Assembly: GCA_964423455.1 (NCBI GenBank)
Contig: CAYRFS010000003.1
Span: forward strand, 1 to 37,326
Direction of reading: 5' to 3'
Origin: an uncultured Acidimicrobiaceae bacterium
GTDB taxonomy: Bacteria; Actinomycetota; Acidimicrobiia; Acidimicrobiales; SZUA-35
Length of the DNA: 37,326 nt
In this document: positions 13,952 to 31,139 of the stretch, piece by piece
How positions within the stretch are numbered: position 1 is the first letter of the stretch
How the letters are laid out: every line of letters starts with the position of its first letter
The notes under the pieces: model-generated
Database searches by the model: none
The model's input: the letters and a program-made list of their open reading frames with translations, nothing else
Told to the model about the DNA's origin: nothing
Position numbers and translations under genes: made by a program

Positions 13952-14068
13952 GGATGACACAGACGCGAAAAAAGCCGACGCCCGCCGCAGGATCTCATTG
14001 GCCCGGCGGAGCTCTCGCACCTCGGCCTCCAGATCCTTGATCCGGGCCGCGTCACCCGACGTCAGGCC
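13952..14068 (-). pseudogene. IS3-family OrfA C-terminal fragment
   Basis: The tail of track ORF 13949..14578 reads DAARIKDLEAEVRELRRANEILRRASAFFA, the leucine-zipper end of IS3-family OrfA. It is fused in frame to an unrelated IS256 fragment. Confidence 0.6.
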
Positions 14069-15011: not shown

Positions 15012-15163
15012 TCAGCTTCTTGAGACAGATGGTAGATGTGTCTCAGGCGGTGTGCAAGCCGGCTCGGACGCGTTTGGGGAATTTGGGGAGCGAGGTCAGG
15101 GAACGGTGTATCCGAATCCGCCCCAGGGACCCTCGTGGGAAGATACAGCGTTCCCTGAGGATG
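15012..15163 (+). other. Recombinase-less sequence related to the IS110 left (non-coding) end
   Basis: Colinear shared blocks with 1513-1625: TCAGCTT, GTGTGCA, GAAC..GTATCCGAATC (11-nt exact), CCCCAGGG, CTGAG.GATG. Same order and strand. No recombinase ORF follows. Confidence 0.35.
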
Positions 15164-15220
15164 TTGCGGTGAGAGCCCACGTGCCGAGGTCACATCGCCA
15201 GCTCAAAGCTCCGCTCCGCA

Positions 15221-17668
15221 TCAGTCCAGGACGCCGGTGGCGGCCAGGTCGGCGATGCGATCGGTGTCGTACCCAAGGATCTCGTTGAGAATCATCCAGT
15301 TGTGCTCGCCCAACGTTGGGCCGGCCCGGTAAACATCGGCTGGCGTGCGGGAGAGGTGGAATCGAGTGCCCTCGACCCAGGTGGTTCCCAGCGAGCCGTG
15401 GTCGACTTGCACCCAGTAGTTGCGATGCCGGAGCTGAGGGTCGTGCCAACACTCGACGGTGTTCTGCACGCGGTGGGCGGGGATCCCGTTGGCCTGCAAC
15501 GTAGCCATGGACTCGTCGGCGCTCCGGGCCGCAGTCCACGCAGCGACGATCTCGTCGAGATCTCGGCGTCGAGCGACTCGATCGTCCTGCGACAGGCTGC
15601 CAAGATCATCTCGTGCCAGCACCGAGCAGAGCGCACGCCACTCGTGGTCAGCTGTAATGGCGACGGCGACCCACTTATCGTCACCGGTCGACGGGTACAC
15701 TCCATGGGGCGCGTATCGGTCATCGTCGTTGCCTCGGCGCTGGTAGGAGCGGCCGATCCGTTGCGTCTCGAGCAGGGCCGGCGTGAGCTGATGCAACGAT
15801 GCCTCGGCTTGAGACAGATCGATGTACTGACCTTTGCCCGTGGTTCGGCGATGATCCAGCCCGGCCATGATGGCAGCGACCAGGAAGCGCGGCGAGATGT
15901 AGTCTGTGTAGGCGCCGAACGGCCCGCTTGGCGAGCGATCGGGCCACCCTGTCACGTTGAAGAACCCAGAGATGGCGGCCGCCATCGTGCCGAAGCCGGC
16001 CAGCCGGCACAGAGGTCCCGTCTGGCCCATGAGGCAGGTCGAAGCCATGATGAGGTCGGGGTTCACCGCCACAAGGTCCTCGTAGGCGAGCCCCCAATGC
16101 GCCATCCGGCCGTGGGCGAATGACTCGACGACGACGTCGGCCCACCGCACGAGATCGAGGATGATCTCTCGCGACGCCGGATTCGACAGGTCGAGGGTGA
16201 GGCCGAGCTTGTTGGCGTTGAGGTTGTGGAACAGCGCTGACTCGTCGGGATGGTTCGAGTTCCTGACGTAGGGCTGCAGCGTGCGGGCACCGTCGAGATG
16301 GTTCGTCGACTCGACGCGAATCACCTGGGCACCGTAGTCGGCCAAGACGCGGGTGGCGGCCGGCCCCGCCATCACCCACATGAGATCGAGGATCTTCACG
16401 TCCTCGAGCGGTTGCCGGGCTGAGCGGGGCGAGGCGAGAGACACCAGCGCGGGTGAGCGAGGAGCTTCCGCCAAGAGCGCTTTAGTGTGCTGCCCCAGAG
16501 ATGGCGTGGATCCGAGGGGGACCAGGGGTGAACCCTCGAACCGTGCGAAACGCCCCGGATAGCGGAAGCCGCCGAGGTCCTCCCAGAAGCCGCGTGCCTC
16601 GAAGTGGTCCAGAGCCAGGACCTCCTCGGTGGTGGTGACCGGGGCAATGAGCACCCGTCTTGAGAACGAGGCGTCGAAGAGTTCAGCTTTGGTTTTCGTG
16701 GCGAAGAAGTCCGCGAGGCACTGTTTGACGCGGATGTACTCGCTGTGGGGTTCGACACCGGTGAAGAGGTTCACGGCGTAGTTCACCCAGTCCTTGTCTC
16801 GTGTGGCCTCGTCGCAGAACCCCTCCTCGTGTACCCAGTCCATGAGATTGCGGGTGAACGGGGCGATGGCCACTCCGAAGAGAAAGGTCACTGATACGTG
16901 ACCGTCGGCGCAGGGCCAAGTGAGCTGGATATGGAACGGGCCCACCTGGCCCCCGTCGGGCAGAGGGATCGGGCCGACCTTCATGCCCCCCGAAACGCGG
17001 TTGCCGTACGTCGACCCGACCGGCTCACAGAGCATCCATGATTGCGATGCTTGCAGCATGGAGGTCTGGGCCGAGCAATCGACATGCTGCCCCAGGCCGG
17101 AGTGGGCCTGGCGCTCGTGGAGAGCGATAAGGGCCGCTCCGACCGACTCGACGCTCGGGTGGAACCAGGCCTGTGGCACGCTCATCCGGAGTGGCGGGCG
17201 GTCTTCGTCACCGGTCATTGCCATCTGACCAGAAGCAGCGGCGATCACGAGGTCGGACACGGCCCAGTCTGCCTTCGGGCCGTCGCTGCCGAACGCCGAG
17301 ATTGAGACATAGATCAGCGCCGGGTTGATCTCGGCCAGCTCCTCGTAGCTCAGGCCCCATTCGGTCATCGCCGCCCAGCCGTGCGTCTCGAACAGGAAAT
17401 CAGCTCCCGCCGCCAACGCTCGGACGGCCGACCGTCCCTGGTCGGTCCCGAGATCGAACGCGGCAGACCTCTTACCCCGGTTGTAGCTGAGCCAGGACAG
17501 GGAAGTGTCGCCTCTAGCCTCATCGTTGAGGTGGGGGCCGATCGCTCGACTGGGGGATCCGGCCGGGGGCTCGACCAGGATCACCTCGGCTCCGAGGCTG
17601 GCCATGAGATGGCCTGCTAGTTGACCTCGCTCGTCGGTGAGGTCCAGAACCCGATATTGACCGAGCAT
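15221..17668 (-). CDS. Tandem two-module family III (CaiB/BaiF) CoA-transferase
   Basis: Two CaiB/BaiF-like halves: YRVLDLTDERGQLAGHLMASLGAEVILVEPP and VKILDLMWVMAGPAATRVLADYGAQVIRVES. I prefer the ATG at 17668 (GAGGAG SD 5 nt upstream) over the GTG at 17674. Confidence 0.85.
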   Translation of the reverse strand: MLGQYRVLDLTDERGQLAGHLMASLGAEVILVEPPAGSPSRAIGPHLNDEARGDTSLSWLSYNRGKRSAAFDLGTDQGRSAVRALAAGADFLFETHGWAAMTEWGLSYEELAEINPALIYVSISAFGSDGPKADWAVSDLVIAAASGQMAMTGDEDRPPLRMSVPQAWFHPSVESVGAALIALHERQAHSGLGQHVDCSAQTSMLQASQSWMLCEPVGSTYGNRVSGGMKVGPIPLPDGGQVGPFHIQLTWPCADGHVSVTFLFGVAIAPFTRNLMDWVHEEGFCDEATRDKDWVNYAVNLFTGVEPHSEYIRVKQCLADFFATKTKAELFDASFSRRVLIAPVTTTEEVLALDHFEARGFWEDLGGFRYPGRFARFEGSPLVPLGSTPSLGQHTKALLAEAPRSPALVSLASPRSARQPLEDVKILDLMWVMAGPAATRVLADYGAQVIRVESTNHLDGARTLQPYVRNSNHPDESALFHNLNANKLGLTLDLSNPASREIILDLVRWADVVVESFAHGRMAHWGLAYEDLVAVNPDLIMASTCLMGQTGPLCRLAGFGTMAAAISGFFNVTGWPDRSPSGPFGAYTDYISPRFLVAAIMAGLDHRRTTGKGQYIDLSQAEASLHQLTPALLETQRIGRSYQRRGNDDDRYAPHGVYPSTGDDKWVAVAITADHEWRALCSVLARDDLGSLSQDDRVARRRDLDEIVAAWTAARSADESMATLQANGIPAHRVQNTVECWHDPQLRHRNYWVQVDHGSLGTTWVEGTRFHLSRTPADVYRAGPTLGEHNWMILNEILGYDTDRIADLAATGVLD

Positions 17669-17827
17669 TTGCACTCCTCTGCGCCAAACCAGTTCGGTGA
17701 GCTTCAGGCCCAGGTCACGTTTAGCACATGTGGGCCGAACTGTCTCATCCAGCGAGGACTTTGATGCTGGCCGTCTCGATGGCTCGGCACCAGCCGGTTC
17801 AACCTGGCTCGATGAACCCGACTTGGG

Positions 17828-18310
17828 TCAGAGCACGAACGTGAGGTTCTGGTAGTAGCGGCCGTAGTCGACCAGCGTTATCCGCTTCTCCACGATCTGC
17901 AGTCTGCCGTCGGCCACCCGGAGCCGCCAGGCGACCCGGGTGGGAACAGCCTGGAGGCCGGTGCTCGGCCTGCATTCGTAGACGACCTGGACCGCCGCCA
18001 CCGCGATCATGCCGCCGTCCGGCTCGATGCCGATCGAGATGTTCGAGAGTTGGTGGCAGGTGACCGACGGCGGATCTTGGGCGTACTCCTTCCCCGAGGT
18101 CAGGCGCGCCAGCCGCGACTCGAGACGGGGCCGGTCGTCGTAGACGATGGACACCTCTCGGCTGGGATCCCGTTCGCCGGGGCCAGCGGGGATCCAATAG
18201 CAGCAGTCGGCTGCGTACAGGGCGAGCCAACCGGCCAGATCGCCGTCGTCGAGGAGGGCTGCCTCTCTGATGACGAAATCGACGATCGACTGACGATCGA
18301 GTTCGATCAT
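17828..18310 (-). CDS. Aromatic ring-hydroxylating oxygenase beta subunit (NTF2-like)
   Basis: The ATG at 18310 overlaps the alpha-subunit stop (ATGA). ALLDDGDLAGWLALYAADCCYWIP...IVYDDRPRLESRLARL...PPSVTCHQLSNISI is typical of Ring_hydroxyl_B. The upstream 42 codons of the track ORF overlap the alpha gene. Confidence 0.85.
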   Translation of the reverse strand: MIELDRQSIVDFVIREAALLDDGDLAGWLALYAADCCYWIPAGPGERDPSREVSIVYDDRPRLESRLARLTSGKEYAQDPPSVTCHQLSNISIGIEPDGGMIAVAAVQVVYECRPSTGLQAVPTRVAWRLRVADGRLQIVEKRITLVDYGRYYQNLTFVL

Positions 18311-19593
18311 GCTGTCATCTCCTCCCGCCATCGTCGGTAGAAGCCCCGTTGCGGATGCTCGTCGGTGACCTGGCCGACCAGCTCTCCGTTGGGTCCTTGC
18401 GTCGTGCGACGCAGGCCGCGCACCATCGGCAGCCATTCCATCGACTCAACCCGCAGACCTTCCGACACGCGCCGGAACATTTCTAGATCGCCGGGAGCAC
18501 CGCCCCCCGCCGGCCCGTAGAAACTCTCGTGGGCCCGCAGCCGTTGCTCGTTGGTTCCACGGTCGGCACCGTCGAGAAGCGTCGGGTAGAGATCTATCTC
18601 GGTGAGATCGACCCGCCTGGGATGGACTACTCGGATCTGGTACTGGATGATCAGCATGTTCGGGAAGACGAGCAGGTTGAAGCCCTGCCCGCCGTTGGTG
18701 CGGACCACCTCACGGGCCCGCTCCGGACCCAAGCGCTCTACGAGAAGAGACAGGTGGCGCCGACCCTCGTCGGTCGCTTCGAACGACCGCTCGTGGCGAT
18801 CAGCGAGGTTGGGGCGATTGTCCAACAGCGCATGGCCGTTTCCCAGGTCGGCAGCCGTGGCCGGTGACGCCCCGTTGAAGAGCTGCATTGCCCGCCCGCT
18901 CGGGCTCGCTCCTTCCAGGTAGGCTTGGTGGACGAAGTTCGGGTGGTAGCCGTCGACTCCGTTCTCGCACTGCAGCTTCCAGTTCCCCTCGTAGCCGTAG
19001 TGATTGGTACCGGGCGTACCCACGAGGATACGCCCTGACGGTGCAAGGTCGCAGAACAGGTCGAGGTAATGGGCAGCGTTGCCAAGATGCTTGCGTAGCG
19101 ACGGTCCGCGGCGAGCCAGGCTGGCGAACACGAAGCCGCGATGGGAATCGACTCGGGCTGGCCGGCCGAGCGGATGGTCGGCGCCGTCGAAGTCCTCGGC
19201 TGCGTACCCGTCGGAGAACGTGGCGCCGATCAGCGATCCGTCGAGCCGGAAGGTCCAACCGTGGTAGGCGCAACGGAGATGACCGGCCACCCCACAGCGG
19301 TCCTGGCAGATGGTGGCCGCTCGATGGCTGCAGCGGTTGAACAGCACATGCAGCGCCCCGGCAGTGTCTCGGGTGAGGATGACCGGCTGCCGCCCGATCC
19401 AGCTCGTCTTGAAAGAGCCCGGCGAGGCAACCTCACTCTCGTGTCCGACGTACACCCACGTGCTGCCGAAGATGCTCGTCATCTCCCGCTCGAAAATCTC
19501 GGGGTCCACATAAACCCGTCGATGAACGCCTCGTTCGGTAACCAGTGGCGCGATTGTCGCCCGATGATCGTCCTGGTCGGTTGTGGTTGGCAC
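18307..19593 (-). CDS. Rieske [2Fe-2S] non-heme iron oxygenase alpha subunit
   Basis: Rieske motif CSHRAATICQDRCGVAGHLRCAYHGW (CxH-x17-CxxH). Mononuclear-iron motif NGVDGYHPNFVH. GTG start. Confidence 0.9.
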   Translation of the reverse strand: MPTTTDQDDHRATIAPLVTERGVHRRVYVDPEIFEREMTSIFGSTWVYVGHESEVASPGSFKTSWIGRQPVILTRDTAGALHVLFNRCSHRAATICQDRCGVAGHLRCAYHGWTFRLDGSLIGATFSDGYAAEDFDGADHPLGRPARVDSHRGFVFASLARRGPSLRKHLGNAAHYLDLFCDLAPSGRILVGTPGTNHYGYEGNWKLQCENGVDGYHPNFVHQAYLEGASPSGRAMQLFNGASPATAADLGNGHALLDNRPNLADRHERSFEATDEGRRHLSLLVERLGPERAREVVRTNGGQGFNLLVFPNMLIIQYQIRVVHPRRVDLTEIDLYPTLLDGADRGTNEQRLRAHESFYGPAGGGAPGDLEMFRRVSEGLRVESMEWLPMVRGLRRTTQGPNGELVGQVTDEHPQRGFYRRWREEMTA

Positions 19594-19713
19594 AGCGGGT
19601 ACCCCCGGGGTGTCGTACTAGATGCCCATCTTGTCATGCCGCGTGCCCTGCCGCCCACCGGAGACGACAAAACCCGTAAGTTGTCGTATGGGGAAACGTG
19701 ATTGCGTGCTGGC

Positions 19714-22236
19714 TCAGATCGGCGATCCGTCGGGGTTGAGGTAGTCGGTGGCGATGTGCCCGTCGGTGACTAGCTCTCGGTACTCGTGGTCGTCGAGGCC
19801 GAGCACCTGGCGGTAGACGTAGTCGTTGTCGGCGCCGAGGCGCAGGATGGGGTCCCAGCGAAGGTCGGGCCCGGTCCAATGCCAGAGGTGGCCGGGATAG
19901 TCGTGCGTTCCGGCATCGGTGGAGCCATTCGGGCGGAAGAAGCCACGAGCCCGCAGATGAGGATCGGCGAAGCAGGCCGACTCCTTCAACACCGGGCCCG
20001 ACGGCACTCCGTCGGCCTGGCAGGCGGCGAACACCTCGGTGGGGGTGCGGCTCGCTGTCCACTCGCCGATGCGGCGGTCGATCTCGTCGTGGTGGTCTCG
20101 CCGGCCCTCGGAAGTGGCGAGCTCAGGAGCGCTGGCCCACTCGGGTGAATCCATGACGCGCACCAGCCCCGACCACTCTTGGTCGGAGCCCACGCTGATC
20201 ACCACCCACTGGTCGTCGCCGGCGCACCGGTAACATCCCTGCGGCGCCCGCAGCGGGTGCCGGTTGCCGCCTTGGGGGAAGTCGCAGCGTGAACGGTGAC
20301 CTTCGATGAGGTACTCGCCGATGTGCTGGAGCATGTTCTCGGCCTGAGGTAACTCGATCAGGCCGCCCTCTCCGGTGTGTTCCCTGCGCCGGAGAGCGAG
20401 CATCACCGCCAAGGCACCCATGACCCCGCTGGCCGGGTCCATGTGGTAGGTGCTTGTGGTGCTCGTCGGGTCGGCGTCGCCGTAGCCCCGGATGGCGGTG
20501 AGCCCGGACAGTGCCTCGAAATGGGCCCCAAACCCCACATAGTTCCGGTACGGTCCATCGAGGCCGAGCGGCGGCATCCGGAGCATCACGAGCGCGGGGT
20601 TGTGCCGTTCCAGCTCCTCCCAGCCCAGCCCGAGCTTGTGCATCGTCTCCGCCGCGTTGTTCTCGACCACCACGTCGGCCGCGGCCACGGCCCGCAGGAA
20701 GGTGGCCCGCCCGAGCGGTCTCGACAGGTCGAGTGTCGCGCCAAGCTTGTTGCGGGCGTGTGCGTTGAACATGGCGTGGCGGTTCCAGGGCCGGTCGCCA
20801 GGGTCGAGGTCTGGGAAGCACGAGCCCAGGAGCCCGAGGGCGCCCATCATCTCGCGAGGCGGGCGCGGCATCAGTCCCCGGGTGGACGATGGGAACAGCC
20901 ACGGGTTGTCGAAACGGATGACCTCAGCCCCGAGGTCGGCCAGGAGCATGGTGCACAGGGGCCCTGCCCACACGACGGTGAGGTCGAGCACCCGGATCCC
21001 GTCGAGCGGAAGGCGGGACTGAGGGGGCGCCGTTCGCTGCCTCGGCCCCGGCCTCGGCCCCGGGGCCGGGACCGAGGCGACAGCGTCAGCTTGCGCCCGG
21101 ATCTCGGCGCCGTGCTGGTCGAGCATGGGGGCCGGCCGACGGAGCGACCAGCCGTCGGGCATCCGTACCGGAGCGCCGGGTTGGCGCACGGTGCCCGCGA
21201 CGGGGTGATCGATGTCGACGAAGAAGCCTCGGCTGGCGAAGTGCCGATCGTCTACGACCTCTCGTGGCTGGTTGACCGGGGTGATCGCCCACCGCTGCGC
21301 CTGGGCCGCCTCGGTGACCTCCTGGCGGGACCGTGCCAGGAGCCAGGGGAAGAGCACCTCGTCGCTCCGTTCGGGCACGGTCGGATCGAGGATCCAGGTC
21401 GGCGAGCTATAGACCTCGGCGAGCGCAGGGTCGCCGACGGCGGCCAGCATTCGCGGTACCCACGCCGGAATCGTGATGATCTGGGCGTAGCCGTCGCCCG
21501 TCGGGTAGATGCCGACCGGCGCTGGCGACAGGCGGCTCGTGCCTTCTCTCTGTGCGTCTCGCCCGGTGTAGGCGTAGTTCAACAGGAAGGTCGTCCGGCG
21601 GTCGATGCTGGCAGCCTGCGACTCGAATTGGGACAGATCGAGGTGGATGGCCTCGTGGCCTGCCTCGACTGTCAGGAGGGCGGCCACGGTGGCCATGGCG
21701 GCCAGGTTGCCGCACTGGTACTGGACGATGTTGCCCCCGAGCTTGACCGGCTCCCGTTCTTCGACGCCGGTGCCCGACATGGCACCGCCCATTGCGTAGT
21801 ACACGATCTCCTCACCCTGGAACTGGGCGTAGGGACCCGTCTGCCCGAACGGTGTGATGCTGGTGAGGACCAGGTTCGGGTTCAGCTTCCTCAGGTCCTC
21901 GAATCCGAGGCCCCAGCCCTCGAGCGTGCCGGGAGCGAACGCCTCCAGCACGATGTCGGCGCCGGAGATCAGGCAGCGGACGAGGTCTCGATCGGCCTCG
22001 GAGCGGGCTAGGTCGGCCACGATCGAGCGCTTGTTGGTGTTGAGATGGAGGTGGAGCGGCCCGAGCTCCGGTCCCGGCAGCTCGGAGGTGGGTGCCCACT
22101 GCCGGGCCGGATCTCCACCCGGGGGCTCGACCTTGATCACGTCGGCACCGAAGCCGGCCAGGATCCGCCCCGCATAGGGCCCGGATATACCGGTTGTCAG
22201 CTCGATCACCCGGATGCTGTCGAGTGCCTGGGTCAC
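19714..22236 (-). CDS. Tandem two-module family III (CaiB/BaiF) CoA-transferase, paralog of 15221..17668
   Basis: Halves begin IRVIELTTGISGPYAGRILAGFGADVIKVEPP and IRVLDLTVVWAGPLCTMLLADLGAEVIRFDNP. I prefer the GTG at 22236, preceded by GGGAGGGAGAGG. The track start ATG at 22296 is the alternative. Confidence 0.85.
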   Translation of the reverse strand: MTQALDSIRVIELTTGISGPYAGRILAGFGADVIKVEPPGGDPARQWAPTSELPGPELGPLHLHLNTNKRSIVADLARSEADRDLVRCLISGADIVLEAFAPGTLEGWGLGFEDLRKLNPNLVLTSITPFGQTGPYAQFQGEEIVYYAMGGAMSGTGVEEREPVKLGGNIVQYQCGNLAAMATVAALLTVEAGHEAIHLDLSQFESQAASIDRRTTFLLNYAYTGRDAQREGTSRLSPAPVGIYPTGDGYAQIITIPAWVPRMLAAVGDPALAEVYSSPTWILDPTVPERSDEVLFPWLLARSRQEVTEAAQAQRWAITPVNQPREVVDDRHFASRGFFVDIDHPVAGTVRQPGAPVRMPDGWSLRRPAPMLDQHGAEIRAQADAVASVPAPGPRPGPRQRTAPPQSRLPLDGIRVLDLTVVWAGPLCTMLLADLGAEVIRFDNPWLFPSSTRGLMPRPPREMMGALGLLGSCFPDLDPGDRPWNRHAMFNAHARNKLGATLDLSRPLGRATFLRAVAAADVVVENNAAETMHKLGLGWEELERHNPALVMLRMPPLGLDGPYRNYVGFGAHFEALSGLTAIRGYGDADPTSTTSTYHMDPASGVMGALAVMLALRRREHTGEGGLIELPQAENMLQHIGEYLIEGHRSRCDFPQGGNRHPLRAPQGCYRCAGDDQWVVISVGSDQEWSGLVRVMDSPEWASAPELATSEGRRDHHDEIDRRIGEWTASRTPTEVFAACQADGVPSGPVLKESACFADPHLRARGFFRPNGSTDAGTHDYPGHLWHWTGPDLRWDPILRLGADNDYVYRQVLGLDDHEYRELVTDGHIATDYLNPDGSPI

Positions 22237-22321
22237 AGCCTCTCCCTCCCTGTTCTTGCTGGCCTTGTCTGCTCGTTGTTCGATCCGCCGGGACATCCAA
22301 TGGCTGTTCGAACCGGTTTAG

Positions 22322-24832
22322 TTAGTGGATCGGAGGTGCGTCGTAGCTCCGGATCTGCCGGTCCGCGGTCGCGGACTCGATTGCCAGGGCCCCGGACGCT
22401 GTTCCGTGCGCTGGCCTGTATGCATCGGCTTGACCAAGGAAATCCCTGAGCTGGTCCAGAGCGGAGGCGGTCCGCTCCTGTGCCGCTCGTAGGATCTCGA
22501 AGGTGACCGGATCGAGCGCGCCGGCCTCGGGCTCGGGCCCGGCCGTCAGCAGGCCATCGGCTAACCCCGAAGCCAGCTTGTCGCCTTCGGCGATCGCGGT
22601 GCCGTATCGGGCCCAGTCGGGCCTGTCCGCCGCGCTCGGCTGGCCCGCAACGGCGCGGTCCTCGCCCAGCCGGGCCAGCAACACAATGTCGGCGGCCTGC
22701 AACTCATCGACTGCTCGAACCAATGAGTCGGAGACAACCTGGTCGGGCGTGCTGTCGGCCCAAGCCCGAATGGCTTGGCGGCGGGCGAGCTCTAGTGCGA
22801 CCCACGTGGCGATCGCGTGGCCGGCGGCGGGGGCGTCCCCGTGGTCTGCCACACCGGGGGCCGGCTGGCCGACGTGGCTGGCCAGCTCTATACCGGCCCG
22901 CTGGCGGTGACGGTGGAGGAGGGCCGCGGTGACGGGGTCTGGGCGATGACCCGCCAGCTCCTGGCTGATGTCTGCCAGCCGATGCAGGTAGGTCTGCACC
23001 AGCTCGGCTGTCGTGGCGCAGGCGAGGCCGGGCGCCGACAGGCTCGACGGATGGTCGACCTCTCCGAGGCGAGCCACAAGCGGGTCGAGGCGCCGGGTCG
23101 CCTCGGCTGCGGCCCGCTCGAGAGCGCTGGACTTCTCCGGGGTGGCGCGCAGGGCCGCTCTCAGCGCGACCTCGAGGCCTGCCACCTGGCGGAGCAAGTC
23201 AAGGTACGGGGGGCGAATCCTAATCGGCTGCGTTGCGGGGGGGATCTGCACTGCGAGCGGTTCAAGCGCAGGTCCGCCAGGACCGGCGGACGCCGCGAAC
23301 ATCGCTGCATGATCGCGAAGCGGCAGCTCCCGCAACAGGAAGGAGACGAGCAGGGCCAGCAGCGCCATCGGCAAGGCGACGAGGAACACCAGCGCGATCG
23401 AGTCGGCGAGGGCGCTGGTCACCTGTTCCCGAAGGGCGACAGGCAGTCCGGCAATGATCGTTGGGCTGTTGGCGAGCGAGTCGGCGTTGACCCCAGGGGG
23501 GAGCTCGGCTCCGGCGGCCACGCCGGCCAGCCGGTCGGCGAGGCGGGCGGCGAACGCTCCGCCGAACATGGCGATCCCGAAGCTCCCGCCGAGTGACCGT
23601 ACGAATTGGACGGCGCTCGTGGCGCTACCCAGGTCTGCCATGTCGACGGCGTTCTGGGTGGCGGTGGTGAACACCGGCATGGCGGCGCCGAGGGCGAGGC
23701 CCTGGACGACCATGGCGAGGCTGATCGTGAGTTGTGAGGTGTCAGCACCGATCGTAGACAGGAACGCCAGGTTCGCCGAGAGCAGGGCGAAGCCGACGAC
23801 GACCCAGATCTTGTAGCGTCCGGTCACGGTGGTGACGCGGCCGGTCACCACTGAGCCGACTGAGACGCCGAGCATCATCGGGGAGATGAGCAGTCCCGAA
23901 TTGGTGGCCGACACCCCGGTGACGCCCTGGAGGTAGACGGGTAGGAACACGGTGCCGGCATACAGGGCGCTGCCGCCCAGGAAGCTGAGGGTCAGGGTGA
24001 CCCTCACCACCGGGTTGGCGAAGAGCCGCAACGGCAGGATCGGCTCCGAGGCCCGCCGCTCCCACAGGACGAAGGCAACGGTCAACACGAGCCCTGAAGC
24101 CCCAAGACTGAGGATCTGGGGGGACCCCCAAGCGTAGTCGTTCCCTCCCCAAGTGGTCACGAGCGTGACGGCCACGACGGCGCCGACCAACAAGACCGCG
24201 CCGAAGAAGTCGACTCGCGCGGCCCTCCGGCGTTGCTCTATCTTCAGGGTGAAGGCCGTCACCAGCAACGCGATCACACCCAGCGGGAGGTTGATGTAGA
24301 AGATCCAACGCCAGCTCACGTGGTCGACGAAGAACCCGCCGGCCAGCGGCCCAATGATGCCGGCACCGGCAAAGACCGCGGTGAAATAGCCGAGGTAGCG
24401 GCCCCGTTGCCGCGGTGGCACGATGTCACCGAGAATGGCGAAGATCACGGCGAACAGGCCACCACCACCCACCCCCTGCAGGGCCCGGAAGGCGATCAGC
24501 TGGTTCATCGTCTGAGCCGCCCCGCAGACGACCGACCCGACGATGAACACGATGATGGTGGCTTGGAACATCAGCTTCCGGCCGAAGAGGTCGCTCAGCT
24601 TGCCCCATAGGGGCGTGGCGGCGGTGCTGCTCAGCAGGTAGGCGACGATGACCCACGACAACTGATCGACGCCGCCGAGATCGCCCACGATCGACGGCAG
24701 GGCGGTAGCCACGATCGTGGTGTCGATGGCAGCCAGGAACAGCCCGGTCATGAGGGCGGCCAGGACGGTCATGGTCTGGCGGTGAGTGAGGAGGGGTGCT
24801 GGCGGATTGTGCGCCGGCGCAGTGGCGGTCAT
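22322..24832 (-). CDS. MFS transporter (DHA2/EmrB-QacA-like, 14-TMS type) with about 330-aa C-terminal soluble extension
   Basis: LAAIDTTIVATALPSIVGDLGG...WGKLSDLFGRK motifs. The hydrophobic core spans about 500 aa, followed by a long helical Ala/Arg/Leu-rich tail in the same ORF. The ATG overlaps the MmpL stop (ATGA, 24829-24832). Confidence 0.88.
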   Translation of the reverse strand: MTATAPAHNPPAPLLTHRQTMTVLAALMTGLFLAAIDTTIVATALPSIVGDLGGVDQLSWVIVAYLLSSTAATPLWGKLSDLFGRKLMFQATIIVFIVGSVVCGAAQTMNQLIAFRALQGVGGGGLFAVIFAILGDIVPPRQRGRYLGYFTAVFAGAGIIGPLAGGFFVDHVSWRWIFYINLPLGVIALLVTAFTLKIEQRRRAARVDFFGAVLLVGAVVAVTLVTTWGGNDYAWGSPQILSLGASGLVLTVAFVLWERRASEPILPLRLFANPVVRVTLTLSFLGGSALYAGTVFLPVYLQGVTGVSATNSGLLISPMMLGVSVGSVVTGRVTTVTGRYKIWVVVGFALLSANLAFLSTIGADTSQLTISLAMVVQGLALGAAMPVFTTATQNAVDMADLGSATSAVQFVRSLGGSFGIAMFGGAFAARLADRLAGVAAGAELPPGVNADSLANSPTIIAGLPVALREQVTSALADSIALVFLVALPMALLALLVSFLLRELPLRDHAAMFAASAGPGGPALEPLAVQIPPATQPIRIRPPYLDLLRQVAGLEVALRAALRATPEKSSALERAAAEATRRLDPLVARLGEVDHPSSLSAPGLACATTAELVQTYLHRLADISQELAGHRPDPVTAALLHRHRQRAGIELASHVGQPAPGVADHGDAPAAGHAIATWVALELARRQAIRAWADSTPDQVVSDSLVRAVDELQAADIVLLARLGEDRAVAGQPSAADRPDWARYGTAIAEGDKLASGLADGLLTAGPEPEAGALDPVTFEILRAAQERTASALDQLRDFLGQADAYRPAHGTASGALAIESATADRQIRSYDAPPIH

Positions 24833-27800
24833 CGTGCGTTCCTTGCTGCCAGATAGAGTTCGACGAGCTCGCGGTCCACGGGGCGGTCGAACAGCTCGGC
24901 CATCACCTCGTCGGGGATCCCTAGCCCGGCCTCAGAGGTGGCATCGGTGTCGTCCAACGTGCTCATCTCGTCGCCCCCGAGCTCGTCCAGCCGGCTGGCG
25001 AACAGCTCGGCAAAATCCAGATCATCGACCCCGATCGTTTCCGGTTGCGCAGCGCGGTCGGCCTCGTGGCGTTGGATCCGGCTCAGTGTCGCCATAAGGG
25101 CGGGAGAAGGGGGTGGCGTCAGGAAGAACAGGTCGGTGTTCTCGAGCTGTTGCCACAGGGTGCGGGACCGTAGCCCCCACCGGTCGAGCACCGAGGCCGT
25201 CACCACATCGTTGCCCATGGTGAGCGGGCCGAGTCGGGCGATTCGTTCGCTCAGCTCGCTGGCCTCCGTCCGCATCGCCCGGAGTGACAGGTGGGCCGCC
25301 GAAGGCAGAATCGCCAAGCCGAGCTCGGTGAGCCGATGCGAGAGCAGCTGGGTGCCGTAGCGCGCTTCCTCCAACAGCGTCTCGGCGCGGGGAAGCCGGC
25401 CGAGCAGGTCCGACAAGCGCTCGGCGTGGCTGGCGACGGCGACAAGAAGCTCGTCCTGAACTGCTCTCCTCGGACTTGCTGCATCCATGAGCGGCCCGTT
25501 CGGGTCGTCGCCGGCCGGTGGAGCGACGGCGGATCGGTCGGCGCCGTTCGACTGGGGGGAACCTTCGAGATCGGGTCCGGCGGGTCGAAGGTCACATTCG
25601 ACGATGAGCGTCGAGGCGGGAACTCCAGTCGGTGCTAAGGGCTGGTCCGAAGATGGCTCAACCGCTGGTGAGGCAGGCGGCGACACGGCGGGCTCGACGG
25701 CCTCCATCCCCTCCAGCGACAGCTCAGGAAGCACCCGGGCGAGCCAGGCCGGCATCCACCAGTTTAGACGCCCCAGAAGCTCCATCGTCGCCGGGACCAG
25801 CAGCGTGCGCACGATCGTCACGTCGATGAGGATCGCGCTGGCCAGGCCGATGCCAAACAGCTTCATAAGGCGCTCGTCGCCGAAAGCGAACGACGCGAAC
25901 AGCGTGATCATGATCGCAGCCGCTGCCGTGATCACCCTAGCTGTCGCTGCGAGGCCGTCGGCCACGGCTTCACTGTTGTCGCCGGTCCGGTCGAACTCCT
26001 CTCGGATGCGCGACAGGAGGAATACCTCGTAGTCCATCGACAGGCCGAACAGGATGGCGAAAAGGAACAGAGGTACGAAGGGCTCGATCGGTCCGGTCCG
26101 GTCGAGCCCGATGAGCTCCAGACCCCATCCCCACTGGAAGACGGCCACGATGACGCCGTACGAAGCAGTCACCGACAGTAGGTTCATGATGCCTGCTTTC
26201 ACCGACACCACGACCGATCGGAACACCGCGGTCAGCAACAGGAAGGAGACGAGCAGAACGGCGACGATGAGGATAGGCAGCCGGGCAGCAAGGAGGTCGG
26301 CTAGGTCGGCGAACGTGGCGGTAATCCCGCCGACGAGCACGGTGGCGTCGCTTCCGGCGGTCGCCTGCGGAACGAGATCGTCCCGTAGGGTCTTCAGCAG
26401 CGCCTCGGTTTCGCGTTCTTGGGGTGAGAATTTGGGGACCACCTCGAACACAGCGGCTGTGCCATCGCCGTTGAACGTAAGCGGCGACACCGCAGCCACA
26501 CTCTCGAGTTGCCCGACGGTGAAGCGAAGATCGTCCAGCACATAGAGATCGCCCTTCGCCGCGGCCTCCCCAACCACGAGCAGCGGACCGTTGAAGCCGG
26601 GCCCGAACCCTTCGGCCAGCAAGTCGTAGGCCCGCCGCGTGGTGCGAGACTCGGGAAGGTTCCCGGCGTCGGCCGTTCCAAGTCGCATCGAGAATACGGG
26701 GATAGTGAGCACCACCAAGGCGAGAGCGCCGAGCACGGCCCAGCCCACCGGGTGACGCTGCACCCGGCGGCTCCAGCGAAACCATCGGCTCGCCGTGTGG
26801 TCGTGCTGCCGCCTGAGGTGGGGGAGCCGCATGCGATCCAGGTGTCGCCCGCCGAATCCGAGCAGAGCCGGCAGCAAGCTCAGGGCAGCCACCATTGTCA
26901 TCAGCACGGCCAACGCAGAGGCGATCGCCATGCCGGTGACGATCGTGACACCGACCAGCACCAGCCCTAGCAGGGCGATCACCACCGTGATACCAGCGAA
27001 TAGGACGGAGCGCCCTGCGGTGCGCATCGCCTCCATCACCGCCAGCTCGACATCGTGATGACGGTCGAAGGCCTGGCGGTAGCGGGTGACGATCAGAAGG
27101 GCGTAGTCGATGCCTACCCCCAGGGCGATCATGGTGGCGAGTTGGGGAGCGAATCTGGAGATGGTTAGGAACTGGCTCGTCAGCGTCACGAGCATCAGGC
27201 CGACGCCGACGCCGAACAGGGCGGTCACGAGGGGAACGCCGGCGGCGGCCACAGTCCCGAAAGTCACCAGCAGCACGACGAGCGCCACCAGAACTCCGAT
27301 CTGCTCACGCTCGCCTGGCCCTTCCCTTTCGGCGAACTCGACCACGCGGCCGCCGAGCTCGACCTGGAGGTTCTCGTTCGATGCGGAACGTGCCAGCCCA
27401 TTCAGCTCGTCGACTACCGTATGGGGCAGATCCTGGGCTCGGCCGTCGAAGTGCACGGTGGCGTAGGCAATCGTGCGATCGGTCGAAACTCGGGCTCCGG
27501 TCGGGTCGTCATAGGGGCTGACGACCAGGGCTACATGGTCCAACTGGGTGATCGCGGCGAACAGCGCCTCGGCCTCGGACCGGACCTGCGGATCGAACAC
27601 GGAGGTCCGCGTATGCAGTGGGACGACGGCGGTGTCGCCTGCGAATGCGGGGAACCGCTGCTCGAGGAGGTCAAAGGCCTCCTGTGACTCTGCGCCGGGA
27701 ACATCGAAGCTGTTGGAGAACTCATCGCCCACCGCGCTGGCCGCAGCGACGAAGCCGCACAAAGCAGCCACCCAGATCACGAGCACGACCCAACGGCGGC

Positions 27801-27834
27801 GAACGCCGACCCGTGCCAGCGTGGACAGCATCAC
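24829..27834 (-). CDS. MMPL-family (RND superfamily) transporter with about 300-aa C-terminal extension
   Basis: The N-terminus VRRRWVVLVIWVAALCGF...FSNSFDVPGAESQEAFDLLEQRFP and two 6-TM bundles typical of MmpL. After ...LGRLNWWMPAWLARVLP comes a Pro-rich linker, then helical and acidic segments. The start overlaps the upstream stop. Confidence 0.9.
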   Translation of the reverse strand: MMLSTLARVGVRRRWVVLVIWVAALCGFVAAASAVGDEFSNSFDVPGAESQEAFDLLEQRFPAFAGDTAVVPLHTRTSVFDPQVRSEAEALFAAITQLDHVALVVSPYDDPTGARVSTDRTIAYATVHFDGRAQDLPHTVVDELNGLARSASNENLQVELGGRVVEFAEREGPGEREQIGVLVALVVLLVTFGTVAAAGVPLVTALFGVGVGLMLVTLTSQFLTISRFAPQLATMIALGVGIDYALLIVTRYRQAFDRHHDVELAVMEAMRTAGRSVLFAGITVVIALLGLVLVGVTIVTGMAIASALAVLMTMVAALSLLPALLGFGGRHLDRMRLPHLRRQHDHTASRWFRWSRRVQRHPVGWAVLGALALVVLTIPVFSMRLGTADAGNLPESRTTRRAYDLLAEGFGPGFNGPLLVVGEAAAKGDLYVLDDLRFTVGQLESVAAVSPLTFNGDGTAAVFEVVPKFSPQERETEALLKTLRDDLVPQATAGSDATVLVGGITATFADLADLLAARLPILIVAVLLVSFLLLTAVFRSVVVSVKAGIMNLLSVTASYGVIVAVFQWGWGLELIGLDRTGPIEPFVPLFLFAILFGLSMDYEVFLLSRIREEFDRTGDNSEAVADGLAATARVITAAAAIMITLFASFAFGDERLMKLFGIGLASAILIDVTIVRTLLVPATMELLGRLNWWMPAWLARVLPELSLEGMEAVEPAVSPPASPAVEPSSDQPLAPTGVPASTLIVECDLRPAGPDLEGSPQSNGADRSAVAPPAGDDPNGPLMDAASPRRAVQDELLVAVASHAERLSDLLGRLPRAETLLEEARYGTQLLSHRLTELGLAILPSAAHLSLRAMRTEASELSERIARLGPLTMGNDVVTASVLDRWGLRSRTLWQQLENTDLFFLTPPPSPALMATLSRIQRHEADRAAQPETIGVDDLDFAELFASRLDELGGDEMSTLDDTDATSEAGLGIPDEVMAELFDRPVDRELVELYLAARNAR

Positions 27835-28778
27835 CGGCTCCTCGTCGTGCTGATGGTCGTCGCAGTCGCAGTATCGGGCAGTGCGGCCACGAACGCCGGG
27901 ATCTCTGCAGGGACGAGCCCGATAGCGGTCAACAGGTCTAGCGCCTGGCGGACAGCCTCATCACGGCGGTCGTCGAGCAGCTGCTGGAGGCCAGGCTGGG
28001 CGGCGTCGAGAGAGCCGACCAGACACTGATCTGCCAGATCCCGAACGCGCGAAGCGACGGTCTCGCCGCCGAGGTCACTGCCGACCGCAAGCTGGCGGAG
28101 ATCGCCGCAAAAGAGCTTCCCTTGGAGAAAGTCGCCGTCGGACCAGGCCTTCAACACCCCGGTGAGAAGGTCGTCCAAGCCGGATCCCGTCGAGCTGAGG
28201 TCGACCGGCGGTGCCTGGGAGATCGACTGGAACAACTCGGTATTAGCCAGGTCGGGACAACGCTCGGCCAATGCCCCTCGGTACGTCGCCGCTCCCGAGG
28301 CCACCTGCCACGCCGTAAGTCCAGACCGTTCAATTGCCTCAGTGACGGCAACTGCGGCGTCGGTCCTGACCTGGCCTCGCCAGTCCGACAACGGCACCTC
28401 GCTTGTCCAAAGGGAGCCCGACTCAAGAGCTGATGCCAGCCATCCATAGTAGGCGACATGGGCCACGCGATGGGCCTCGCTCCCGTCGGCCAGCGCCGGC
28501 GGCGCAAGCTCCACCGTCTTGTCGAGACCGGTCAGCCAGCCTCGCAGCGCATTGGCGTAGTCGCTTCGGTCTGCCTCGGGCAACGCTGCGAGGTCCTGAA
28601 GCTGGAGTACACGACCCCGCTCCACCGCCTCGTTCGCCGCACAGAAGCTCGCCTTGGCCTCTGCCGCAGTTGCCTCGTCGGTCGCCGCCGGGCCTGCTAC
28701 AGCGTCGTTTGATCCACACGCCGAGCAGAGCAGTAGCGTCGCAAGCGCTGGTCCGCCGATCCGAGACAGTCGTCTCAT
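27831..28778 (-). CDS. Putative secreted protein/lipoprotein (first gene of transporter block)
   Basis: ATG at 28778 with GAGAGGGGA SD. MRRLSRIGGPALATLLLCSACGSND is a signal peptide with a lipobox-like LCSAC. Otherwise helical; no family recognised. Confidence 0.65.
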   Translation of the reverse strand: MRRLSRIGGPALATLLLCSACGSNDAVAGPAATDEATAAEAKASFCAANEAVERGRVLQLQDLAALPEADRSDYANALRGWLTGLDKTVELAPPALADGSEAHRVAHVAYYGWLASALESGSLWTSEVPLSDWRGQVRTDAAVAVTEAIERSGLTAWQVASGAATYRGALAERCPDLANTELFQSISQAPPVDLSSTGSGLDDLLTGVLKAWSDGDFLQGKLFCGDLRQLAVGSDLGGETVASRVRDLADQCLVGSLDAAQPGLQQLLDDRRDEAVRQALDLLTAIGLVPAEIPAFVAALPDTATATTISTTRSR

Positions 28779-28803
28779 CGAATCCCCTCTCATCGCGCAC
28801 AGT

Positions 28804-28830
28804 TTGGACATTGGTCCAATCCATGTCCAA
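28804..28830. promoter_or_regulatory. Candidate TetR operator in the divergent intergenic region
   Basis: TTGGACAT (28804-28811) and ATGTCCAA (28823-28830) are perfect inverted repeats. There is also an inner TTGGACattgGTCCAA palindrome (28804-28819). The site lies in the 44-bp gap between divergent starts and overlaps the proposed TetR ATG. Confidence 0.55.
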
Positions 28831-29443
28831 TCGACTACCTTGTACCGAGGTGACCGCGCGCCACGTTGCTTCAACCCCGCTCCCGACCGAGATCGCTGCC
28901 GCCCTCGAGGAGATTGCGGACCAGTGGGCAGCGCACGGGGCAGACCCGCGGATCAGCGACATCGCGGCCATGACCGGCATCCCCCGCTCGACGCTCTACT
29001 ACCACTTCTCCGGTCGCAAGGATCTGCTGGCCTATCTGGCGACGACGGTCATCGCCTCGTCGCGCGACATTGTCCTCGTTGCATCAACAGGGCCTGGTAG
29101 TGAGGTGGAGAAGCTCGGACGGGTTCTGGAAGCGCAGGTCAGGTTCTTCGCCGGTCGGCCGCACCTGGCCGTCACGCTTTTCACCAACCTCGGTAGTGCG
29201 GGCGACCTCCGGTCGCTGGCCGAACGTATGAACGCGGCCTTCCACCGGCCCGTAGAGCGCCTGCTGGTCGCGGGGCGTCGAGCGGGCCACTTTCGCCACG
29301 TCGTGAGCCCCGAGACAACGGCCTCGGCTCTCTTCGGGGCTGTGGCCATGACAGCCATCCACTATCTGGTGGTGGACGGGCACCTCGACGCCGAGCGGCT
29401 CATCCCGGAGCTCGTGCCGAACCTCTTGCGCGGGCTCGGCTGA
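28823..29443 (+). CDS. TetR/AcrR-family transcriptional regulator
   Basis: ISDIAAMTGIPRSTLYYHFSGRKDLL is the TetR HTH. Start chosen at ATG 28823 (alternative GTG 28850). The long upstream part of track ORF 28403..29443 is antisense to the lipoprotein gene. Confidence 0.85.
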   Translation: MSNRLPCTEVTARHVASTPLPTEIAAALEEIADQWAAHGADPRISDIAAMTGIPRSTLYYHFSGRKDLLAYLATTVIASSRDIVLVASTGPGSEVEKLGRVLEAQVRFFAGRPHLAVTLFTNLGSAGDLRSLAERMNAAFHRPVERLLVAGRRAGHFRHVVSPETTASALFGAVAMTAIHYLVVDGHLDAERLIPELVPNLLRGLG

Positions 29444-29493
29444 CGACTCGAACTTGTCGACTTCTGCTACATGTTGCCTAGACTGTCTTGTCG

Positions 29494-31074
29494 ATGACCG
29501 ACGCGATCTCACCCATGGCCCGATCGGGCGAGCCGTTCTCCCTGGTGGGGTCCGGTGGCCTGACCATCGTCGGAGAGCAATGGGGGGATCGGTCGGGCCC
29601 GCCGGTCCTCCTGCTCCATGGTGGCGGGCAGAACCGGCACGCCTGGAAGGGCAGCGCTGCCACCCTTGCCGCCGCCGGCTATTTTGTGGTTGCACTAGAC
29701 GCCAGGGGCCACGGCGACAGCGGCTGGTCCGACGATGGTCACTATGAGATGGAGCATCTGGCGGGCGACCTCATGGCGGTTCTTGGCTCGCTCGAGCGGC
29801 CCCCGGCCGTCGTCGGGGCGTCGATGGGGGGGATGACAGCGATCACGGCCCAGGGCATGGCCGACTTCCAGCTGTTCTCGGCCGTGGTCTTGGTCGACGT
29901 CACACCCCGCATGGAGTTGTCCGGTGTGACCCGGATCCTCGGCTTCATGACGGCCCATCCGGACGGGTTCGACTCACTCGAGCAGGCGGCCGAGGTCATC
30001 GCGGCCTACAACCCCCATCGCGAACGGTCGGGGTCTCCGGCCGGGCTGGGCAAGGTGCTCCAGGAGCGTGGTGGGCGTTGGCACTGGCGTTGGGATCCCC
30101 GCTTCATCACGAGCAAGGTCGAGATGATGAGCGGCGATCCGGTTGCGGTGGAGCAACGGATGAACACCATGGCGGCTCAGATGCACGAAGCAGCCAAGCG
30201 TGTTCAGGTGCCGACGCTGCTCGTGCGGGGTGCGCAGTCTGATCTCGTGAGCGCCGAGTCGGTGCAGGAGTTCCTCGCCGTCGTACCCCACGCCAGCTAT
30301 GTCGACGTGAGCGGCACTGGCCATATGGTGGCGGGCGACGACAACGACGCCTTCACTACCGCCGTGCTCGAGTTCCTCCGCGAGCACGTGCCAAGCGACG
30401 CAGAAGAAACTCGGCTGGTCGCCGCACGCCGAGCAGCTGCCGACGCGGTGCGCCGTTTCGGCCACGCGTTGGTGAATCACGACGCTCCGGTGGACCTGTT
30501 GGAGGCCATCGCCCGCAACCTCAGCGCGGCCGCCGTCGAGGTCGAGCAAGGTCCGGTCCGGGACCGGCTCGCCTCCATGATGGCCTCGGAACGTACCCGC
30601 GCCCTGCTTTCGGGAGATGAGCCCACGCCTCCGGTTAACGGCGCGGCACTCGACTTCGCCCCCTATGGTCTCATCGGGGGACCCGCCAACCCTCTTGGTG
30701 TCGACGCCACCTATCACCGGGACGGGCCCGACGTCGTAGCCACTCTCACCTTAGGGGCGGCGTTCGAGGGACCGCCTGGCCGAGCACACGGTGGCGTGGT
30801 CTCGGCGGTCATAGACGAGACTATGACTGCACTGCTTACGACGCTGGGTACGGCTGCGTTCACCCGCTCCCTCCAGGTCGACTATGTGGGCCCAGCCCCT
30901 CTCCACACACCACTCCATTTTCGGGCTCGCTTGTGTGAGCGTGACGACCGAGCGTTGGTCCTTGGTTGTGAGGGCCGGGCGGGTGATCGGTTGTTCGTCC
31001 AGGCGACTGGCACATTTGTCGAGGTCGACCTACGCCGTCTCATCGCCGAGATGGGCCGTATGGTCGGGGACTGA
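29494..31074 (+). CDS. Fusion protein: alpha/beta-hydrolase domain plus C-terminal PaaI/4HBT-type hotdog thioesterase domain
   Basis: VLLLHGGGQNRHAW, nucleophile elbow VVGASMGGM, GTGHMV in the N-domain. GRAHGGVVSAVIDETMTALL hotdog motif in the C-domain. ATG at 29494 (track TTG 29488). Confidence 0.8.
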   Translation: MTDAISPMARSGEPFSLVGSGGLTIVGEQWGDRSGPPVLLLHGGGQNRHAWKGSAATLAAAGYFVVALDARGHGDSGWSDDGHYEMEHLAGDLMAVLGSLERPPAVVGASMGGMTAITAQGMADFQLFSAVVLVDVTPRMELSGVTRILGFMTAHPDGFDSLEQAAEVIAAYNPHRERSGSPAGLGKVLQERGGRWHWRWDPRFITSKVEMMSGDPVAVEQRMNTMAAQMHEAAKRVQVPTLLVRGAQSDLVSAESVQEFLAVVPHASYVDVSGTGHMVAGDDNDAFTTAVLEFLREHVPSDAEETRLVAARRAAADAVRRFGHALVNHDAPVDLLEAIARNLSAAAVEVEQGPVRDRLASMMASERTRALLSGDEPTPPVNGAALDFAPYGLIGGPANPLGVDATYHRDGPDVVATLTLGAAFEGPPGRAHGGVVSAVIDETMTALLTTLGTAAFTRSLQVDYVGPAPLHTPLHFRARLCERDDRALVLGCEGRAGDRLFVQATGTFVEVDLRRLIAEMGRMVGD

Positions 31075-31107: not shown

Positions 31108-31139
31108 GCTGCACTCGTTATGTCGCGACCGCGCCCTGA

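Follow-up and report, generated by a model that had tools for sequence, protein, structure and literature searches.

A lipoprotein-MmpL-MFS gene set beside two-domain CoA-transferase and Rieske oxygenase genes in an uncultured Acidimicrobiia bacterium: a probable species-specific mosaic

A 37,326-nt stretch of DNA from an uncultured Acidimicrobiaceae bacterium (GenBank contig CAYRFS010000003.1; the window, hereafter) carries a block of seven genes on the minus strand. In the direction of reading, they specify a putative lipoprotein, an MMPL-family RND transporter (MmpL), a DHA2-family MFS permease (MFS), a two-domain type III coenzyme A (CoA)-transferase (CoA-T2), the alpha and beta subunits of a Rieske oxygenase and a second two-domain CoA-transferase (CoA-T1); a gene for a TetR-family regulator is divergent from the first of them. 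This block is, in our view, probably a species-specific mosaic, in which a TetR-controlled efflux unit stands beside a separately transcribed acid-catabolic unit, head-to-tail on one strand. The reading builds on the gene content and contiguity of the block, the absence of the gene order from relatives, the two CoA-transferase genes being adjacent ancestrally, the pattern of their catalytic Asp residues and the skewed distribution of RNA over the seven genes. In the literature, we found no described locus that combines a Rieske oxygenase, a family-III CoA-transferase and an MmpL transporter.

Gene content and contiguity of the block

The open reading frame (ORF) map and the junction sequences reproduced the seven minus-strand genes, running from 28778 to 15221, that had been recognised in an earlier sequence-only reading of this DNA, and all the gene families named there were matched by Pfam and NCBIfam, i.e., two family-III CoA-transferases, Rieske alpha and beta, a DHA2 MFS, an MMPL and a TetR protein (Table 1). 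Three junctions are 4-nt overlaps of the ATGA/GTGA type, as reported before (lipoprotein/MmpL, 27831–27834; MmpL/MFS, 24829–24832; alpha/beta, 18307–18310), and the intergenic gaps within the block are all of 159 nt or less. The 25-nt gap previously given for MFS/CoA-T2 is likelier to be one of 85 nt: judged from the sequence, CoA-T2 probably starts at the GTG at 22236, directly after GGGAGGGAGAGG, and the database gene call is of 840 amino acids (aa). CoA-T1 may start at the ATG at 17668.

For contiguity, the contigs of four metagenome runs were compared with positions 13000–31500 of the window. A single contig of 18,126 bp from an independent biofilter metagenome covers 14635–31500 with 17 mismatches, and every junction of the block is spanned in the three other runs. 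As four independent metagenomes carry these junctions, the block is genuine and not an assembly artefact, and its order is fixed in all the environmental strains sampled. Per-gene GC content and GC content at third codon positions (GC3) reveal no clear foreign segment inside the block, and Rfam gave zero matches within the window. For the alpha protein, an exact copy turned up on one contig of 2.8 kb only. For alpha and CoA-T2, the nearest homologues occur in metagenome-assembled genomes (MAGs) of Acidimicrobiia/Acidimicrobiales, at 70–78% identity, while near-identical sequence was found in bioreactor, biofilter, wastewater and groundwater metagenomes of several studies; the host is an uncultured Acidimicrobiia bacterium, common in wastewater and biofilter systems.

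Table 1. Features of the block and its borders, in window coordinates.
Feature	Coordinates	Strand	Basis or remark
Mutator-family transposase fragment	13949..14578	(-)	PF00872, partial match; left edge of block
Hairpin-rich stretch, candidate terminator without U-tract	15085..15225	(-)	After the CoA-T1 stop codon
Block of seven minus-strand genes	15221-28778	(-)	ORF map and junction sequences
CoA-T1, predicted type III CoA-transferase of two domains	15221..17668	(-)	Two CoA_transf_3 stretches; longest ORF 15221-17674
Rieske oxygenase beta subunit, 160 aa	17828..18310	(-)	PF00866; ATGA overlap with alpha
Rieske non-haem-iron oxygenase alpha subunit, 428 aa	18307..19593	(-)	PF00355 and PF00848; start GTG 19593
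RNA 5′ end upstream of Rieske alpha	19595..19608	(-)	Five contig ends, each from a different metatranscriptome; three studies
CoA-T2, predicted type III CoA-transferase of two domains	19714..22236	(-)	Two CoA_transf_3 stretches; longest ORF 19714-22296
DHA2-family MFS efflux permease, 836 aa	22322..24832	(-)	PF07690
MMPL-family RND transporter, 1001 aa	24829..27834	(-)	PF03176 in two stretches
Putative lipoprotein/secreted protein, 315 aa, near-orphan	27831..28778	(-)	ATG 28778; N-terminus MRRLSRIGGPALATLLLCSAC
Operator-like inverted repeats, TTGGACAT-N11-ATGTCCAA, inner TTGGAC-N4-GTCCAA	28804..28830	(.)	Repeat search
TetR-family regulator, 206 aa	28823..29443	(+)	TetR_N and TetR_C_24 domains; ATG 28823
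Alpha/beta-hydrolase fused to 4HBT thioesterase (ABH_TE)	29488..31074	(+)	Pfam; downstream of TetR

Gene order in relatives

The seven-gene order was found in contigs of the same species only and in none of the relatives examined. In the relatives L008 and L010, the orthologues of CoA-T2 (71% identity) and CoA-T1 (76%) are directly adjacent, with a gap of 88 bp; a pair of thiolase-like and DUF35 genes occurs upstream of them, and an orthologue of the alpha/beta-hydrolase-thioesterase gene (75%) and an amidohydrolase fragment are situated nearby. There is no Rieske alpha/beta pair between these two CoA-transferase genes, and no MmpL, MFS or TetR gene in their vicinity. The thioesterase part of the alpha/beta-hydrolase-thioesterase orthologue gave fragmented, frame-shifted matches only in both relatives.

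Relaxed tblastn searches uncovered the same module in unfused form. In L020, L021 and L022, four consecutive single-domain genes, each in its own reading frame, follow one another in the order T2N-T2C-T1N-T1C, the letters N and C denoting the N- and C-terminal domains (identities of 57–59% for T2N, 63–64% for T2C, 36–37% for T1N and 41–42% for T1C), and in L011, a fused T2 is followed by unfused T1N and T1C. The split or partly fused modules occupy positions 10034–15045 in L020, 10001–15033 in L022 and 3642–8592 in L011. Those of L020 and L022 are accompanied by genes for an ACAD, two ECH, a further CoA-transferase, an SDR (immediately upstream) and thiolase-like proteins and, further, for a MaoC hydratase, an AMP-ligase, a luciferase-like monooxygenase and an Amidohydro_2 protein. 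To judge from these predicted neighbours, the setting of the CoA-transferase module in relatives is beta-oxidation-like and acid-catabolic. T2-T1 adjacency is conserved across several lineages and the fusion state is variable; because relatives hold adjacent T2 and T1, be they fused or split, the adjacency is taken to be ancestral.

Orthologues of the Rieske alpha and beta subunits (78% and 68% identity, respectively) are found in other neighbourhoods. In L002, L003 and L004, they are followed by a P450 gene, the product of which is 84% identical to that of the P450 gene at 35433–36671 of the window, where it is located 16 kb from alpha/beta on the opposite strand; the neighbours of the orthologues in L005 and L007 are different again. 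With respect to the transporter genes, L077 (98% identical; same species) keeps the order ABH_TE-TetR-lipoprotein-MmpL-MFS. None of the other 79 MmpL relatives, from metagenome loci (identity of 57% at most), has the lipoprotein-MmpL-MFS arrangement of the window, as far as could be gathered from a raw-ORF scan, noisy in high-GC DNA; in one of them (L092), an MFS gene (52%) and P450 genes occur within 6 kb of the MmpL relative, in a different arrangement. No relative with the CoA-transferase module or the Rieske pair was seen to have TetR or the pump module.

A Rieske oxygenase of the alpha-only kind (386–398 aa) is shared at 84% identity between L002 (4890–6050) and L008 (8776–9972), and is close to a gene for a PdxA-family dehydrogenase in the latter. 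The genome that bears alpha/beta and the one that bears the CoA-transferases draw on the same gene pool, differently arranged in each relative.

The TetR regulator and the operator-like repeats

The TetR gene is divergent from the lipoprotein gene, with 44 bp between the two start codons. The palindromes that had been noticed in this gap were found back, though one of them reaches with its right arm into the start codon of TetR. The 8-nt arms TTGGACAT and ATGTCCAA are located at 28804–28811 and 28823–28830, and the inner 6-nt palindrome, TTGGAC/GTCCAA, spans 28804–28819. The core motif occurs once in the 37-kb window, against 0.01 occurrences expected by chance: searches for TTGGAC-N(3-12)-GTCCAA and for the 16-mer (with up to three mismatches) returned 28804–28819 only, and no further copy in the internal gaps of the block or elsewhere in the window.

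In most or all tested cases, a TetR regulator whose gene lies within 200 bp of a divergent neighbour controls that neighbour (PMC3511530). By this rule, and because the gap here is of 44 bp, repression of the divergent lipoprotein-MmpL-MFS genes by the TetR protein is very probable. The candidate binding site, which the regulator probably recognises, is the inverted repeat in the gap.

RNA from the block in metatranscriptomes

RNA was surveyed in ten metatranscriptomes (activated sludge, wastewater and plastisphere), of which assembled contigs of at least 150 nt were counted. Of 31 RNA contigs, 27 fall in 15221–19608 (CoA-T1, beta and alpha) and 4 in 19609–28778 (CoA-T2, MFS, MmpL and lipoprotein), which gives alpha/beta and CoA-T1 a contig density 14 times that of the four upstream genes (binomial P = 4e-10). 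Two plastisphere runs, X28 and X29, which bear an RNA-Seq label with METAGENOMIC as source, were excluded, as they cover the block evenly and are probably DNA.

A recurrent RNA 5′ end is situated just upstream of Rieske alpha: contigs end at 19595, 19597 (with Illumina adapter read-through), 19598, 19607 and 19608, i.e., 2 to 15 nt 5′ of the GTG start codon. Another RNA contig (18157–18430) bridges the alpha/beta junction. Zero contigs were found over 17703–18156, and none covers the gap between beta and CoA-T1. Taken together, the contigs speak for an RNA start inside the block and a much lower expression of the pump genes in the conditions sampled; such scarcity of pump-gene RNA would look like the pattern expected of a TetR-repressed unit.

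A scan for promoter and terminator consensus sequences gave the same counts as shuffled sequence and no match in the intergenic gaps. Upon folding, the MFS/CoA-T2 and CoA-T2/alpha gaps appeared unstructured and the beta/CoA-T1 gap mildly structured (z = -1.8). The hairpin-rich stretch behind CoA-T1 (Table 1) has a minimum free energy of -59.3 kcal/mol (z = -2.34), and 4 of 200 shuffles fold as well.

RNA contigs of the wastewater metatranscriptomes X27, X31 and X33 were also found at 14482–14973, downstream of the CoA-T1 stop codon. The only ORFs there are 14619–14984 on the minus strand and 14679–15023 on the plus strand, both without a family match, and this RNA could represent a 3′ untranslated region, a small unannotated gene or a non-coding RNA.

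The sequence-only reading had proposed that the seven genes form one TetR-controlled operon or regulon, serving the transport and the CoA-dependent oxidation of a single hydrophobic carboxylic acid, and had named conserved synteny and co-transcription as checks. We consider such a unit unlikely. It would account for the shared strand, the three 4-nt overlaps and the short gaps without terminator-like sites, for the divergent TetR gene with its operator-like palindrome, and for a block that is intact in all sampled strains. However, the gene order is confined to this species, with insertion sequence (IS) remnants close by, and the modules are apart in relatives; the metatranscriptome contigs show the 14-fold skew and the separate RNA end at 19595–19608; the operator motif occurs in one gap only; and both transporters are of exporter families (see below).

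The CoA-transferases CoA-T2 and CoA-T1

Each of the two CoA-transferases is a polypeptide of some 815–840 aa with tandem CoA_transf_3 domains. To read the column of the catalytic Asp, their halves were aligned with solved type III enzymes and with each other. An Asp matching the active-site Asp of formyl-CoA transferase and of SUGCT is present in the C-type units only (D600 in T2 and D589 in T1), which leaves both proteins with a single catalytic Asp, in the C-terminal domain; the N domains of T2 and T1 have Q or W in this column, and Q, W, S, E or F occur across the N-type units. The position of the C-domain Asp agrees with what we take to be Asp602 in DddD. In the PDB, the N and C halves are matched best by benzylsuccinate CoA-transferase, namely by its two subunits (9fn0 chains A and B; BbsE and BbsF). 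Since the halves match two separate subunits and the Asp is restricted to the C-type units, CoA-T2 and CoA-T1 are each best read as a fused pseudo-heterodimer, with a single predicted active site.

CoA-T2 has abundant homologues among the MAGs of Acidimicrobiia and Dehalococcoidia, and neither CoA-T2 nor CoA-T1 passed an NCBIfam equivalog model. DddD was the sole characterised two-domain member of the family until PtmU4 was added, and the DddD clade is separate from the other two-domain enzymes; like the window pair, DddD and PtmU4 have their tandem CoA_transf_3 domains in one polypeptide of about 820–840 aa (PMC6006322). In contrast with DddD, the window pair consists of two such proteins that are conserved together and occur unfused as four genes in other lineages. 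The gammaproteobacterial matches, 29–32% identical, are called DddD-like by organism label only; with such identities and no DMSP (dimethylsulfoniopropionate)-related context, a DddD orthologue (DMSP CoA-transferase/lyase) was rejected. Genomes of SAR202 and of other organisms that degrade recalcitrant organic matter have many CaiB/BaiF paralogues, including DddD-like ones, together with ring-hydroxylating oxygenases and MFS exporters (PMC5395668), but this is a repertoire at the level of the genome and not a defined locus, and the host here belongs to the Acidimicrobiia of engineered water systems.

PtmU4, which is involved in thioacid formation, brings to mind a small biosynthetic and export locus, where the two-domain CoA-transferases and the oxygenase would tailor a metabolite for export by pumps like ActA and ActB. 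Although pump pairs of the ActAB type are known from biosynthetic clusters, we judge this highly improbable, as no Pfam match for a polyketide synthase, non-ribosomal peptide synthetase or terpene synthase was obtained among the window ORFs scanned, and the neighbouring genes, here and in relatives, are catabolic (ACAD, ECH, thiolase-like, P450, Amidohydro_2 and thioesterases).

The Rieske oxygenase

The motifs of the alpha subunit are intact, with CXH-X17-CXXH at residues 88–111 and DxxHxxxxH at residues 214–222; with these Rieske and 2-His iron motifs, and with beta encoded as a subunit apart, the oxygenase has the hallmarks of the alpha3beta3 type. The best curated models for alpha are BenA (228 bits; cut-off of 781) and AntA (202 bits; cut-off of 672). 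With BenAB and AntAB, the window pair shares the two motifs and the ATGA overlap of alpha and beta, besides these best matches. It differs from them in that alpha scores far under the equivalog cut-offs, in that neither a BenC-type reductase or ferredoxin gene nor an adjacent cis-diol dehydrogenase gene accompanies the pair, and in that it is embedded between CoA-transferase genes.

We have also considered that the insertion of the Rieske pair was adaptive and gave this Acidimicrobiia lineage of wastewater a new route, “activate, hydroxylate, release, export”, the acid being aromatic or alicyclic and perhaps xenobiotic. In that case, the oxygenase would act on the CoA thioester made by CoA-T2 or CoA-T1, the alpha/beta-hydrolase-thioesterase would free the product, and MmpL, MFS and the lipoprotein, under TetR control, would export it. 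As a whole, this chain of events seems quite doubtful.

The lipoprotein, MmpL and MFS genes

Since DHA2 and MMPL are export families, the uptake envisaged earlier is unlikely, and export is the direction of transport that we infer for both. The MFS protein passes TIGR00711 (EmrB/DHA2) with 256.6 bits, at a cut-off of 230.2. MmpL has Asp-Tyr pairs at residues 243–244 and 601–602, which we take to be the proton relay by likeness to MmpL3, and 11 hydrophobic segments in a crude scan. It stays below the equivalog cut-off of MmpL3 (NF052608; 231 versus 1400 bits) and that of actII (TIGR00833; 189 versus 875 bits); with scores so far under both, an orthologue of MmpL3 or ActII-ORF3 was ruled out.

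Both transporters carry a helical, Ala/Leu/Arg-rich C-terminal extension: a soluble one of about 290 aa in MmpL (24829–25698) and one of about 330 aa in MFS (22322–23299). The extensions match no Pfam family and are not similar to each other, and the MmpL relatives (identity of 57% at most) are proteins of about 730 aa, without the extension. Six single-nucleotide polymorphisms common to all four metagenomes cluster at 24942–25014, within the MmpL extension.

The N-terminus of the lipoprotein-like protein resembles a signal peptide and contains LLLCSAC. It has two candidate Cys residues in MRRLSRIGGPALATLLLCSACGS; as read by eye, the lipobox is approximate at best, and neither residue fits the strict pattern [LVI][ASTVI][GAS]C. 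No Pfam or NCBIfam family was matched. Searched with this protein, a set of 5.8 billion proteins yielded no match besides itself; a single relative (36% identity) was retrieved among 1.84 billion representatives, on a 1.2-kb contig without context. The AlphaFold model, made without an alignment, was unusable (pLDDT of 46.7).

The nearest known counterpart is the ActR-actAB system, where ActA belongs to the MFS and ActB to the MMPL family, the model TIGR00833 being named “actII”. In Streptomyces coelicolor, the TetR repressor ActR is divergent from the operon of the two export pumps (PMC3482498). The window has in common with that system the divergent TetR gene, the pair of a DHA2-type MFS and an MMPL RND pump, and a palindromic, operator-like sequence in the gap. 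However, the pump order is reversed (MmpL, then MFS), the orphan lipoprotein-like gene comes first, the pumps have their long C-terminal extensions, the score of MmpL is well short of actII (above) and no antibiotic biosynthetic cluster is found around the genes.

A functional link between the pump unit and the enzyme unit, for instance product export, is possible; their adjacency is the only tie found between them. In its fuller form, without co-transcription, the pumps would export a toxic intermediate or dead-end product of the CoA-transferase and oxygenase enzymes, with TetR sensing the same compound. We regard this as conceivable but not likely. ActR answers to pathway intermediates and controls two pumps (PMC3482498), the export of partially oxidised CoA-pathway products by MFS proteins has been proposed for SAR202 (PMC5395668), the linkage is fixed in all strains, and the alpha/beta-hydrolase-thioesterase encoded after TetR could free an acid from its CoA ester. 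Set against this, the pump module and TetR are missing in relatives that have the CoA-transferase module or the Rieske pair, and the RNA data show expression of the enzyme genes next to near-silence of the pump genes.

Sequences surrounding the block

RNA contigs are present on ABH_TE, and a second hotdog (4HBT) thioesterase domain is found at 34638–35318. All four metagenome assemblies are interrupted at 14120–14640, at the Mutator-family transposase fragment that marks the block's left edge; several short contigs of high depth map to 13949–14640, which behaves as a repeated element at that border. An IS110-family transposase ORF (1636–2883, plus strand) overlaps a long ISL3-family transposase ORF (1951–4257, minus strand); the two look like nested or adjacent insertion sequences. 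The genes for a MoxR AAA ATPase, a DUF58 and a DUF4129 protein (9275–13081) are a compositional outlier, with a GC content of 0.72–0.76 and a GC3 of 0.83–0.88 in surroundings of about 0.65. With IS remnants close to the block, the region as a whole is IS-rich, shuffled and catabolic.

Discussion

In the mosaic that we favour, TetR would bind the repeat in the 44-bp gap and silence the translationally coupled lipoprotein, MmpL and MFS genes until its ligand arrives, in a manner like that of ActR/ActAB, where one repressor is set over two exporter pumps of different families. CoA-T2, which starts some 85 nt downstream with no terminator in between, may be read through from the promoter of this efflux unit. 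The second unit would descend from the ancestral four-domain module of CoA-T2 and CoA-T1, which elsewhere would activate a carboxylic acid for beta-oxidation-like processing, and into which, in the lineage of the window, a benzoate/anthranilate-like Rieske alpha/beta pair would have been inserted, between the two CoA-transferase genes. It would thus bring together CoA transfer to a carboxylic acid and the oxygenation of an aromatic or alicyclic substrate. An acid of this kind is the substrate that these enzymes suggest; the oxygenase may attack it either free or as the CoA ester. In wastewater communities, the Rieske pair, with an RNA 5′ end of its own, and CoA-T1 are expressed, with the pump genes nearly silent.

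Several observations weigh against this mosaic. The seven genes share one strand. The nearest relatives with usable context are only 60–78% identical to the window, so that the age and the direction of the rearrangements can but be inferred, and all the environmental strains sampled have the same fixed arrangement, as would fit with selection for linkage. The RNA evidence comes from assembled contigs, unstranded and of low depth, of mixed communities, in which a depth of 0 is no proof of absence. No convincing -35/-10 pair was seen upstream of the RNA end at 19608, and the 5′ end at 19595–19608 could be a processing site. No terminator-like structure was found in the three internal gaps, and read-through from a derepressed TetR-controlled promoter may occur. 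There is, finally, no ferredoxin or reductase gene among the ORFs of the 37-kb window. A missing cognate ferredoxin or reductase is common in actinobacteria, and is no argument against oxygenase activity.

For the earlier proposal of a regulated, CoA-dependent oxidation of a carboxylic acid, this means that the enzyme half is plausible, as the module of the relatives resides among ACAD, ECH, thiolase-like and MaoC genes, and that its extension to a regulon of the whole block is not supported. Nor is a coherent new pathway: the block is best seen as a lineage-specific juxtaposition, and an RND and an MFS pump under a divergent TetR have been described already, in ActR-actAB. As each unit has its described precedent, the pathway claim matters little.

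Of most use as a lead is the four-domain CoA-transferase module, conserved in fused form or as four genes and with one predicted catalytic Asp per pseudo-heterodimer. It provides a clear model for how the abundant “CaiB/BaiF” paralogues are built, and a clean example of gene fusion or fission. The expression of the oxygenase and CoA-T1 genes in wastewater communities, in turn, points to a real substrate in such systems.

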